Below are positions 1 to 2,353 of a stretch of DNA of 2,353 nt, in pieces (position 1 is the stretch's first letter; each line of letters starts with the position of its first letter). The position numbers and the translations under genes were made by a program. The notes under the pieces are model-generated. The model ran no database searches, was not told the origin of the DNA, and saw only the letters and a program-made list of their open reading frames with translations. The DNA comes from Escherichia coli. Its GTDB lineage: Bacteria; Pseudomonadota; Gammaproteobacteria; Enterobacterales; Enterobacteriaceae. The stretch lies in NCBI RefSeq assembly GCF_024298765.1, contig NZ_CP101219.1, one strand, 5' to 3'.

Positions 1-120
1 TGTCAGTCCTTCGTTCTTCGCTCGCCGTCTGATTTCGCTTGCGAGTCTGTTATTTACTCTAAGGGTGATAACCTTAGTTCTCTGCCGTACTTCTGAACCA
101 CTACGTTTATTTTTAGCCAT
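1..120 (-). CDS. N-terminal segment of an RHH-domain protein, candidate MbeC/MobC-like mobilisation accessory protein. Start codon at 120-118; the frame runs off the window start.
   Basis: Minus-strand translation from ATG(120-118) gives MAKNKRSGSEVRQRTKVITLRVNNRLASEIRRRAKNEGLT, with no stop before position 1. KVITLRV followed by NNRLASEIRRRAKNEG is the beta-strand plus first helix of a ribbon-helix-helix fold. A GGAGAG Shine-Dalgarno (plus-strand ctctcc, 129-134) sits 8 nt upstream of the ATG. Not in the ORF track because it is truncated at the window edge. Confidence 0.6.
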   Translation of the reverse strand, partial: MAKNKRSGSEVRQRTKVITLRVNNRLASEIRRRAKNEGLT

Positions 121-140
121 CGCAATGACTCTCCATTTTG

Positions 141-240
141 CACGTTTGGGGTGTCGGGGCTTGCCCTGACAGGAGGTATTCTCATGCAAGCGAATGTATT
201 CGCGGTATGACGAATACACATCCTGTCCCATTTTCCGCTA
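141..240. other. Candidate origin of transfer (oriT/bom-like) of the ColE1/MOBP5(HEN) type, upstream of the RHH gene start.
   Basis: GGGGTGTCGGGGC at 148-160 matches, from my recollection, the GGGTGTCGGGGC motif next to the bom/nic region of pBR322 and pUC backbones. It is followed by a GGGCttGCCC hairpin and nested inverted repeats GCGAATgtATTCGC (189-202) and GTATTCG-N9-CGAATAC (195-217). Its position just upstream of an MbeC-like gene matches ColE1-type MOB module layout. The nick site cannot be located by eye. Confidence 0.35.
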
Positions 241-1968: not shown

Positions 1969-1978
1969 CAATGTATTA

Positions 1979-2018
1979 AAACCCGCCAAATTGGAATTTC
2001 AAATTTATTGGCGGGTTT
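1979..2018. terminator. Candidate bidirectional intrinsic terminator between the convergent rep and RHH genes.
   Basis: Perfect 11-bp stem AAACCCGCCAA (1979-1989) / TTGGCGGGTTT (2008-2018) with an 18-nt AT-rich loop. It is flanked by T/A-rich sequence on both strands, 11 nt after the rep stop and 30 nt after the RHH gene stop. The loop is longer than typical, hence moderate confidence. Confidence 0.5.
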
Positions 2019-2047
2019 AATATTCGTGACGGCTAGCGCCGAAGATT

Positions 2048-2353
2048 TTAGCTAAATGTGTTTGAGCCAGGATATTTATTTTTATGATGCCGTTTTATTA
2101 TTTTTATTTCCTGTTTTAATAAATCCATTTGATTATATATATCAGAAATTCGCTTCGTTACTATTTTCATTTCATCGCAAAGTAAAATTATTTTATGCAT
2201 CACCTCGAGGTACTCTTTATCCTTCGGCCGCTTTCCCTTATCAAATAATTTCTTCTGCATCCGACCAAGTCGGATTAATTCATATAAATACCTGGAAGGT
2301 ACGCGCTGTTTTATTTCATTATTTAAACTTGCCGTCCTGATATATTCTGAAAT
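2048..2353 (-). CDS. C-terminal segment of the same RHH protein if the molecule is circular. The frame is open from the window end (2353) to the TAA stop at 2050-2048.
   Basis: The reverse complement of 2261-2353 translates without a stop as ISEYIRTASLNNEIKQRVPSRYLYELIRLGR and continues into the 70-aa ORF listed at 2048..2260. Codon boundaries land exactly on 2353 and on position 1, so ...EGLT (ending at position 1) joins ISEYIRTASL (starting at 2353) in frame. This completes the second RHH helix (GLT-ISEYIR). Combined protein is 141 aa. Confidence 0.5.
   Translation of the reverse strand: MSEYIRTASLNNEIKQRVPSRYLYELIRLGRMQKKLFDKGKRPKDKEYLEVMHKIILLCDEMKIVTKRISDIYNQMDLLKQEIKIIKRHHKNKYPGSNTFS

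Follow-up and report, generated by a model that had tools for sequence, protein, structure and literature searches.

The stretch of DNA under study (the window; 2,353 nt of the Escherichia coli contig NZ_CP101219.1) is a complete circular RepL plasmid of 2.35 kb that was cut within its mobA gene. The circular plasmid pGF4-H (2354 bp) aligns to it in one piece at 99.66% identity and is colinear across the window ends. When positions 120..1 are joined to positions 2353..2048 on the minus strand, an uninterrupted ORF of 141 codons is obtained. Codons 1-40, beginning with the ATG at 120-118, occupy 1..120; from there the gene runs on over the circular junction, and codons 41-141 with the stop codon (2050-2048) occupy 2048..2353, the span that a first-pass annotation had flagged for a shift in composition. 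A Shine-Dalgarno sequence (GGAGAG, 129..134, minus strand) is located 8 nt 5' of the mobA start codon, and the SD/anti-SD duplex energy at codon 1 is -6.4 kcal/mol compared to a gene background of -2.25 +/- 2.28 kcal/mol. The counterpart gene of pGF4-H differs by 1 nt and is annotated as an intact mobA. The gene is also intact in the related plasmids L001 and L002, and the RefSeq annotation of the 141-codon gene is already MobA. In all 35 plasmid records found at a coverage of at least 80%, mobA is one continuous ORF; intact members have a constant length of 141-142 aa, and dN/dS of the whole gene is 0.18. mobA is a real gene that encodes a single protein of 141 residues, and its low-GC half is neither a second gene nor an assembly artefact. 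The plasmid family is carried by 51 of 5426 complete E. coli genomes (~1%). Where a circular contig is opened within mobA, spurious partial ORFs result, and MobA entries marked "partial" were common.

Upstream of mobA, an IncI-type oriT was located at 148..235 (minus strand). It includes a nick-region core, GGACAGGATGTG (217-228), an adjacent inverted repeat (195-202/211-218) and a conserved block, GCCCCGACACCCC (148-160). Both GGACAGGATGTG and GCCCCGACACCCC are invariant in an alignment with the regions upstream of nikA from IncI1, IncI1/B/O and pCERC7-type plasmids, and the alignment identifies the putative oriT as a homolog of the IncI1 oriT. In IncK2/Z plasmids, two different members of the plasmid family were found integrated precisely into the nick core, adjoining nikA-nikB; both cointegrate junctions are inside the oriT nick core. 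No relaxase gene or remnant was found in the window, neither in the ORF list nor in a tblastn search for NikB residues 1-489 (best E=1.8), and no nikB remnant was found beneath the C-terminal extension of mobA that is described below.

At the opposite end of mobA, a hairpin (1977..2022) is located between the stop codons of the convergent genes rep and mobA. Folding of the RNA gave -24.2 and -24.7 kcal/mol (z = -4.0 and -3.5), and on both strands U-runs follow the stem. It is a candidate bidirectional terminator that would end the mobA transcript just after the low-GC tail. The sole Rfam match in the whole window, P9, falls on this hairpin and was rejected, as its score of 23.3 bits is below the gathering score of 43.

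Profile and structure searches assign the protein to the NikA/MobA branch of nicking-accessory proteins. A ribbon-helix-helix (RHH) DNA-binding domain is predicted for codons 12-51, which the window ends split into 1..87 (codons 12-40) and 2321..2353 (codons 41-51, second helix; both minus strand). Residues 6-51 match NikA(1-51), PDB 2BA3 (phmmer, E=1.4e-6), the NikA-like family PF21983 of Pfam matches residues 12-78 with 58.2 bits (cut-off 27), and AlphaFold2 (AF2) models place a strand at residues 15-23 and helices at 24-37 and 41-50. The NCBIfam MobA profile NF041264 extends further, over residues 12-96, with 96.1 bits (cut-off 80). If the 70-aa tail is searched alone, Pfam and NCBIfam return a match to the end of the MobA profile only (tail residues 1-25) and otherwise nothing below E=0.06. 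The first-pass annotation had proposed the MbeC family for comparison. Like mobA, MbeC (ColE1) and MobC are RHH nicking-accessory proteins of mobilisable plasmids, but the 141-aa protein has no match to Pfam MobC (PF05713) at E<=10, and the comparison leads to PF21983 and NF041264 instead. Members of the family are canonically 103-111 aa long, end after the second long helix and are co-transcribed with a cognate relaxase gene, nikB. With 141 aa, the mobA protein is a length variant, which is no ground for exclusion, and accepted orphan NikA plasmids likewise lack nikB. The family is also characterised by binding to the oriT repeat, DNA bending and a need for the protein in nicking by the relaxase, for which the integrations at the IncK2/Z nick core are indirect evidence only in the present case. 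Overall, the protein is a minor variant of the known NikA family and largely ordinary.

The homology to NikA is not confined to the DNA-binding domain but passes codon 72 and reaches about residue 109. In a tblastn comparison, IncI1 NikA (110 aa) and mobA share 50% identity over residues 6-103. Codons 60-109 (2147..2296, minus strand) encode the NikA-homologous C-terminal helical hairpin with the motif LGRMQKxLFxxGKRxxDKEY, which takes in the first 38 residues of the tail as delimited by the first-pass annotation. In an alignment with 41 other NikA/MobA proteins (57 sequences in total), G70, Q73, K74, F77 and G80 are invariant, and L69, L76, D85, E87, Y88, V91 and I95 are conserved in at least 90% of the sequences. 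The hairpin is modelled with a pLDDT of 94-96, and dN/dS for codons 72-103 is 0.10. Judged by these alignments, residues 60-109 represent the ordinary C-terminal helical hairpin of the family.

The shift in composition within the RHH gene is real, as the first-pass annotation had reported, yet modest. GC content is 40.4% for codons 1-71 and 30.0% for codons 72-141 (Fisher p=0.03), and the second half is lysine-rich (K 7% to 20%, R 18% to 4%). Codons 41-141 make up the flagged span, 2048-2353, of which only 2048-2260 is the low-GC half. The N-terminal part, termed moderately GC-rich, does have a higher GC content than the tail, but its 40% equals the plasmid mean (39.4%), and the GC content of the tail equals that of the rep gene (29.4%). 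The fall in GC occurs wholly at codon position 2 (43.7% to 18.6%), with GC3 equal between the halves (33.8% vs 34.3%, p=1.0). Resampling of synonymous codons on the fixed protein gave an expected difference of 0.114 +/- 0.029, compared to an observed difference of 0.104. The amino acid sequence alone predicts the fall in GC, and the shift is therefore one of amino acid composition and not a change in the type of DNA: the hairpin uses Lys, Ile, Asn, Met and Glu codons in place of Arg, Ala, Thr and Gly, which lowers GC. A sharper discontinuity, GC3 included, is found at approximately codon 110 (window ~2146). Here, GC3 is 38.2% on the 5' side and 19.4% on the 3' side, with p=0.056 in the window alone but the same direction in 12 of 12 family genes (13-32% in the extension vs 35-47%). 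For the rep gene, GC3 is 21%. Overall GC of codons 110-141 is 23.7%.

These codons (~31 residues; 2051..2146, minus strand) form a family-specific extension. In it, the long helix runs on for three more heptads, followed by the basic stretch KIIKRHHKNK, and the C-terminus carries a conserved motif, KNKYPGSxxF. None of the other 41 NikA/MobA proteins, which end at aligned residue 109/110, has this extension. It is also present in the 57%-identical protein P0129. A tblastn search with the extension (E<=10) against 72,556 plasmids returned the 39 records already known and nothing outside mobA. Similarly, no tail peptide apart from mobA was found in these plasmids or in 1.8 billion representative proteins. 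In the phmmer search of the 1.8 billion proteins, two giant repetitive proteins, P0044 with 13 and P0045 with 9 stretches of 33% identity, were set aside as coiled-coil composition matches to the tail and not homologs. These searches indicate that the extension is restricted to the E. coli small-plasmid family. The overall identity of extension-bearing lineages goes down to 57-73%, and Y113, M116, D117, L118, E122, I123, I126, K127, K133, P135, S137 and F140 are invariant in 16 of 16 family members. With a dN/dS of 0.155 at a dS of about 0.7 (0.68-0.8), the pattern of substitutions indicates that the extension is kept under purifying selection. In the literature that was accessible, no paper deals with the 141-aa subfamily, and for no NikA-family protein does an experiment or structure address the C-terminal half.

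The first-pass annotation had also taken the tail to be probably helical and had suggested a coiled-coil prediction; the tail is indeed predicted to be helical. The AF2 monomer (mean pLDDT 82.7) contains helices at residues 60-78 and 86-133 (pLDDT 82-96). The second of these (2075..2218, minus strand) is a single long predicted alpha-helix with an unbroken heptad register, in which positions a are occupied by Y88, I95, M102, I109, M116 and I123 and positions d by V91, L98, V105, I112, L119 and I126. The a/d positions are 86% hydrophobic compared to 24% elsewhere, a periodicity that was matched by 1 of 5000 shuffles. In the model, the extension prolongs the last helix by three heptads, yielding a predicted helix of ~48 residues with coiled-coil periodicity. 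An AF2 dimer of self-linked chains (paired alignment) reached a pLDDT of 51, is unusable for quaternary structure and agreed with the monomer in secondary structure only. Foldseek against the PDB yielded a best E of 1.0, and its high-probability matches were designed helical hairpins only. The net charge of the tail is +8, and its basic cluster is at residues 124-133.

The start of the extension coincides with a recurrent recombination breakpoint zone at codons 111-117 (2123..2143, minus strand), which emerged from maximum chi-square scans, segment identity matrices and the module map. Maximum chi-square tests gave p=6e-12 for the window and L002 (3/333 vs 20/90 differences), p=3e-14 for L001 and L002, and p=8.5e-6 for L011 and L012. 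On the 3' side of the breakpoint, the mobA allele travels with the adjacent replication module, and module boundaries map to the mobA 3' end. The extension may have arisen when AT-rich DNA from the side of the replication module was captured into the reading frame; it would since have been kept by selection and would also serve as a crossover point for swapping replication modules. An argument against such a capture is that lineages with saturated synonymous sites (dS>1) still share the low GC3 in the extension, which may therefore be due to a lasting local bias instead of a foreign origin.

Among known systems, mobA is closest to NikA of the IncI1 plasmid R64 and its I-complex relatives (110 aa). 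They share the RHH domain and the LGRMQKxLFxxGKRxxDKEY hairpin, and in both cases a homologous oriT with an identical nick core immediately precedes the gene. Compared to R64 NikA, the mobA protein is 31 residues longer at the C-terminus, its C-terminal half is lysine-rich and AT-rich, no nikB follows the gene, and it resides on a 2.3-kb RepL plasmid instead of a conjugative plasmid. Full-length NikA is tetrameric and NikA(1-51) is dimeric. A second point of comparison is provided by the orphan NikA/MobA proteins (107 aa) of pCERC7, NTP16 and pU302S, which are likewise encoded on small plasmids without a relaxase, with an IncI-like oriT and a NikA-type accessory gene alone. Identity between an orphan of this type (L007) and mobA is about 42% over residues 4-95. 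Unlike mobA, these proteins have the canonical length and end in ...LLSRLMAD; their genes have a GC content of 51%, and their replicons are ColE1-type and RNA-primed, not RepL. Orphan nikA plasmids, NTP16 included, are mobilised by R64, according to the summary of Moran & Hall 2017 in PMC9282650.

A more distant parallel is offered by PcfF of pCF10 and TraM of F. In both, as in mobA, an N-terminal RHH domain is followed by a C-terminal helical domain; the PcfF stalk binds the relaxase and the TraM stalk tetramerises (PMC6514445). The resemblance to mobA is architectural only, as no sequence or fold match is detectable and the PcfF motif NINQ is absent from the mobA protein. By analogy with these proteins, the mobA tail would most likely work like the PcfF/TraM stalk.

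Two alternative readings place a junction near codon 72. According to one of them, which the first-pass annotation had allowed for, the RHH protein starts at codon 1 and a separate lysine-rich protein of 70 aa starts at an internal ATG (codon 72; 2258..2260, minus strand). A 70-aa ORF, 2048-2260, is indeed listed alone, but solely as a result of the cut within the gene. The ATG encodes a normal residue of the motif LGRMQK and is not a start codon. It has no Shine-Dalgarno sequence (-2.1 kcal/mol, i.e. background, compared to the value given above for codon 1) and is part of the motif LGR[ML]QK that is common to the 110-aa NikA. Residue 72 is variable, with M replaced by T in L004, by I in L011 and by K in P0129, and with L, M or I in other NikA-family proteins. 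Moreover, the frame is unbroken in the 35 plasmid records, dN/dS is continuous across codon 72, and the tail never occurs as a stand-alone gene, so that the probability left for a second gene is negligible. Barely more credible is a chimera in which a GC-richer RHH part was joined at approximately codon 72 to an AT-rich tail from another source. The 10-point fall in GC between the halves suggests such a fusion, but GC3 does not change there, the fall is fully predicted by amino acid composition, IncI1 NikA aligns unbroken over residues 6-103, NF041264 spans residues 12-96, and no recombination breakpoint was found near codon 72 in any pair tested. A weaker form of the idea of sequences of different origin does hold ~38 codons further on, where residues 110-141 are absent elsewhere, have lower GC3 and start at the breakpoint.

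The other alternatives concern the extension itself. It could be a functionless read-through tail that followed the loss of an ancestral stop codon and is merely tolerated, as its absence from all other NikA-family proteins, its similarity in composition to the neighbouring AT-rich DNA and a one-off example in the NikA sequence P0049 might suggest. The low dN/dS at a dS of about 0.7, the 12 residues that are invariant across lineages of 57-73% overall identity, the continuity of the heptad register with the upstream helix and the length of 141-142 aa in every intact member make this unlikely. It is still more improbable that the low 3' GC stems from an overlapping element at the DNA or RNA level, be it a terminator, an origin, an antisense RNA or an antisense ORF, and not from the protein. 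Although a strong hairpin is found just 3' of the stop codon and a 94-aa antisense ORF (2056-2340) is present in the window, the hairpin is outside the CDS, stop codons interrupt the antisense ORF in L010, L013, L014-L016 and L018, the other relatives lack its start codon, and Rfam gives no credible match. Synonymous sites of the extension diverge freely, while non-synonymous sites do not. A doubtful but more serious possibility is that the extension, chiefly its basic end KIIKRHHKNK, wraps or bends oriT through additional non-specific contacts with DNA or acts in autoregulation of mobA, with no role in relaxase binding or oligomerisation. The net charge of the tail and its basic cluster are in line with this reading, and DNA bending as well as, in many cases, autoregulation is known of RHH accessory proteins (PMC6514445, PMC4175270). 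On the other hand, the a/d heptad pattern argues for helix-helix packing and not for a DNA-facing surface, and the most conserved part, the terminal motif KYPGSxxF, is not basic.

We consider it probable, though far from certain, that one gene encodes one relaxosome accessory protein of the NikA family, on a RepL plasmid with an IncI-type oriT and without a relaxase gene, and that its conserved hairpin and family-specific coiled-coil extension serve in oligomerisation or recruitment of NikB. The RHH dimer would bind the inverted repeat beside the nick site, and the helical hairpin together with the extended coiled coil would form an oligomerisation stalk. The NikB-type relaxase that this stalk might recruit would come in trans from an I-complex helper plasmid (IncI1/IncK/IncB/O/IncZ). 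That the C-terminal half acts as a relaxase-interaction domain, as the first-pass annotation had surmised, is plausible by analogy and fits the family architecture, in which the RHH domain is followed by the hairpin that is conserved in IncI1 NikA.

A more speculative extension of this favoured reading, to which we attach little probability, is that the additional residues are an adaptation of relaxase-less "hitcher" plasmids. The longer stalk and the KNKYPGSxxF end would let an orphan MobA capture, from several I-complex helpers, their NikB relaxase or coupling protein, or out-compete the resident NikA for it. The conserved DNA of the extension would also provide a constant site of crossover, where the mob/oriT module is combined anew with different RepL replication modules. 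The orphan NikA plasmids of the pCERC7/NTP16 type (107 aa, L007) do without the extension, and life without a relaxase therefore does not require it.

About half of all plasmids have no relaxase, and many of them are thought to move with a borrowed one (PMC10123127, PMC11389934). The plasmid family described here carries an oriT and an accessory protein only. If the coiled coil tunes the engagement of a helper relaxase, it would be a small and easily tested determinant of the pairing between helper and cryptic plasmids.

The window is an entire small circular plasmid, cut within mobA. Plasmid pGF4-H (NZ_CP172225.1; circular, 2354 bp, E. coli, chicken meat) aligns with it at 99.66% identity as one 2354-nt piece spanning the window ends, and pSTEC2018_607-n and related Col(MG828)-typed plasmids likewise give end-spanning alignments at 92-94% identity. 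Joining positions 120..1 to 2353..2048 yields an uninterrupted 141-codon ORF on the minus strand, which differs by 1 nt from the pGF4-H copy; these plasmid records all label it, as an intact gene, 'plasmid mobilization protein MobA'. A 70-aa ORF is seen alone in the window because the latter is cut inside mobA. The sole other gene encodes a RepL-type replication protein (1435-1968) and is convergent with mobA. Between the two stop codons lies a strong hairpin (1977-2022; z = -4.0 and -3.5) with U-runs on both strands, likely a bidirectional terminator, that was missed by the consensus terminator scan owing to its long loop. Public assemblies also contain frameshifted or read-through MobA/NikA variants (P0041, 97 aa, 13 member sequences; P0029, 141 aa; P0049, 144 aa), which could be pseudogenes or sequencing errors, and many 'partial' MobA entries with surplus N-terminal residues that stem from contigs cut in the gene or from upstream mis-starts.

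The first-pass annotation had described a moderately GC-rich N-terminal part of mobA and a low-GC tail. The shift is real, with 40.4% GC in codons 1-71 vs 30.0% in codons 72-141 (Fisher p=0.03), lysine rising from 7% to 20% and arginine falling from 18% to 4%; the 'GC-rich' half is simply at the mean of the plasmid (39.4%), and the GC content of the tail is that of the rep gene (29.4%). The drop is restricted to codon position 2 (43.7% to 18.6%), while third-position GC (GC3) is 33.8% vs 34.3%. When synonymous codons were redrawn from mobA's own usage with the protein sequence held fixed, the expected half-to-half GC difference was 0.114 +/- 0.029, compared with 0.104 observed. Equal GC3 and a protein-predicted GC difference thus attribute the drop at codon 72 to amino-acid choice and not to another kind of DNA. 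The observation is correct and mostly trivial, an amino-acid-driven shift within one already annotated NikA-family gene.

Family membership was assigned by NCBIfam MobA NF041264 (96.1 bits vs a cut-off of 80, residues 12-96) and Pfam NikA-like PF21983 (curated cut-off passed, residues 12-78), and the N-terminus matches the ribbon-helix-helix (RHH) structure of NikA(1-51), 2BA3 (E=1.4e-6). In a tblastn search of 72,556 plasmids, the 110-aa IncI1 NikA shows 50% identity across residues 6-103. Among 57 aligned sequences, the motif LGR[ML]QKxLFxxGKRxxDKEYxEV crosses the codon-72 junction, with G70, Q73, K74, F77 and G80 invariant, and all 41 non-family NikA/MobA relatives (103-111 aa) end at aligned residue 109/110. 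Since NikA homology continues past codon 72 up to this point, the ordinary NikA-family C-terminal region accounts for about 38 of the tail's 70 residues; by these alignments, only residues 110-141 are additional to the family.

A separate small gene starting at the internal ATG (2260-2258), as had been suggested, is refuted. This ATG lacks a Shine-Dalgarno sequence, its energy of -2.1 kcal/mol being within the gene background (-2.25 +/- 2.28), whereas codon 1 is preceded by GGAGAG 8 nt upstream (-6.4 kcal/mol). Residue 72 is T and I in two related small-plasmid records (L004 and L011), K in the 57%-identical MobA lineage P0129, and L, M or I in other NikA-family proteins. None of the homologues compared has a split mobA. 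An antisense ORF (2056-2340) was rejected as well, as stops interrupt it in six relatives.

The extension is present in every intact subfamily member, all of 141-142 aa, among them the P0129 lineage, which has the same 2.2-2.3-kb mobA/RepL arrangement. Twelve positions are invariant in 16/16 family sequences (Y113, M116, D117, L118, E122, I123, I126, K127, K133, P135, S137 and F140). The Nei-Gojobori dN/dS of codons 111-140 is 0.155 at a dS of ~0.7, compared with 0.21 in codons 1-71 and 0.10 in codons 72-103; the extension is thus translated in the mobA frame and under purifying selection. Outside the end of this mobA, the extension was located neither by phmmer with the 70-residue tail among 1.8 billion representative proteins nor by tblastn with the last 43 residues in all plasmids (E<=10). 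The AlphaFold2 model (57-sequence alignment; mean pLDDT 82.7) places helices at 24-37 and 41-50 (RHH), 60-78 and, as a single long helix, 86-133, followed by eight non-helical residues. In the long helix, the heptad register is unbroken from Y88 to I126; a/d positions are 86% hydrophobic vs 24% at the others, equalled or beaten by 1 in 5000 shuffles. NikA has roughly three of these heptads; the extension contributes three more, then a basic cluster (KIIKRHHKNK) and a conserved end (KNKYPGSxxF). Foldseek returned no informative structural relative, and a linked-dimer model (pLDDT only 51) was too low for use.

A fusion of sequences of different origin, contradicted at codon 72 by equal GC3 and continuous homology, holds in a weaker form 38 codons downstream. 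GC3 of the extension is 19.4% vs 38.2% for codons 1-110 (p=0.056), similar to the rep gene (21%), and 12/12 family genes examined show the same direction (13-32% vs 35-47%). Maximum chi-square scans place a sharp breakpoint at codons 111-117 between the window and the related plasmid L002 (3 of 333 nt differ before it and 20 of 90 nt after it; p=6e-12), between L001 and L002 (p=3e-14) and between L011 and L012 (p=8.5e-6). Upstream of it, L002 and L009 have 99% identity to the window, and downstream 80-82%. The window shares one extension allele and RepL module with L001; a different allele occurs with a different module in L002 and L009. The family-wide conserved mob/oriT block stops in the last few mobA codons (2053-2064). 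Together, these findings indicate that the last ~30 codons behave as part of the border to the exchangeable replication module, which is consistent with, and no proof of, a derivation of the extension from replicon-side AT-rich DNA. As synonymous sites are saturated between deep lineages (dS>1), the persistently low GC3 may instead come from a lasting local bias and not from the history of the segment. What is mildly new is a conserved, family-restricted 31-residue coiled-coil extension coinciding with a recurrent recombination junction.

The replication module (1124-2063 vs L002 and L009-L016) is exchangeable family-wide, with RepL proteins of 137-181 aa and, in 3.1-kb members, sometimes an extra hypothetical gene of 258-270 aa, while the mob/oriT block and a GC-rich block stay conserved. 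The latter (660-1123; 61% GC) has no conserved ORF and no Rfam match. It matches 883 plasmid records in all and is common to hundreds of E. coli plasmids of ~1.46-1.55 kb with essentially no annotated genes (83-87% identity); Col(MG828) typing may rest on it, or it may be a second element, of RNA type, for replication or resolution. Between oriT and this block, a non-coding stretch of 27% GC (250-600) with several inverted repeats (e.g. 334-354/356-376) is conserved within the small-plasmid family. Within the RepL coding sequence, an inverted repeat with a 19-bp stem (1688-1732), flagged in the terminator scan and self-matching in reverse complement in blastn against relatives, could be an origin or regulatory site of the replicon. 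Up to three different family plasmids occur per strain, as in GF4 (NZ_CP172224.1, NZ_CP172225.1, NZ_CP172226.1) and STEC2018-607 (L001, L012), which implies that their differing replication modules are compatible and offers an occasion for the swapping observed at the 3' end of mobA.

The oriT upstream of mobA is homologous to its IncI1 counterpart. The nick-region core GGACAGGATGTG (217-228, minus strand), adjoined by an 8-bp inverted repeat, and the block GCCCCGACACCCC (148-160) do not vary among the window, two further lineages of the family, IncI1, IncI1/B/O and pCERC7-type plasmids. Neither a relaxase gene nor a nikB remnant was found in the window. NTP16, an orphan nikA plasmid of another lineage, is mobilised by R64 according to the account of Moran & Hall 2017 in PMC9282650. 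In the IncK2/Z conjugative plasmids pTMSA992 (NZ_KR905387.1; L022, 5123-7446) and p5312.29 (NZ_KR905385.1; L023, 5765-8110), a whole family member is inserted directly upstream of the resident nikA-nikB. The inserted members differ (99.7% identity to L002 and 99.9% to L016, respectively), and both insertion junctions fall within the shared 12-nt core GGACAGGATGTG, resulting in two hybrid oriT copies. The assemblies were PCR- and Sanger-verified in PMC5350095, which mentions just 'another fragment of 2.3 kb between yggA and nikA', unexplained. The insertions look like relaxase-mediated oriT x oriT cointegration. Insertions with such junctions are the in vivo signature to be expected of I-complex NikB acting on the family oriT by relaxase-catalysed oriT-oriT recombination.

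In the most likely mechanism, MobA dimers would bind the oriT repeat via the RHH domain. PcfF, an analogous accessory factor of the RHH type, uses its stalk to bind the relaxase, and the TraM stalk forms tetramers (PMC6514445). By analogy, the C-terminal helical hairpin and lengthened coiled coil of MobA would form an oligomerisation and recruitment stalk that brings NikB from a helper plasmid to the nick site. Alternatively, the basic end of the extension could make additional DNA contacts. In the stalk model, the stalk contacts would gain strength or a changed specificity from the three added heptads and the conserved end of the protein.
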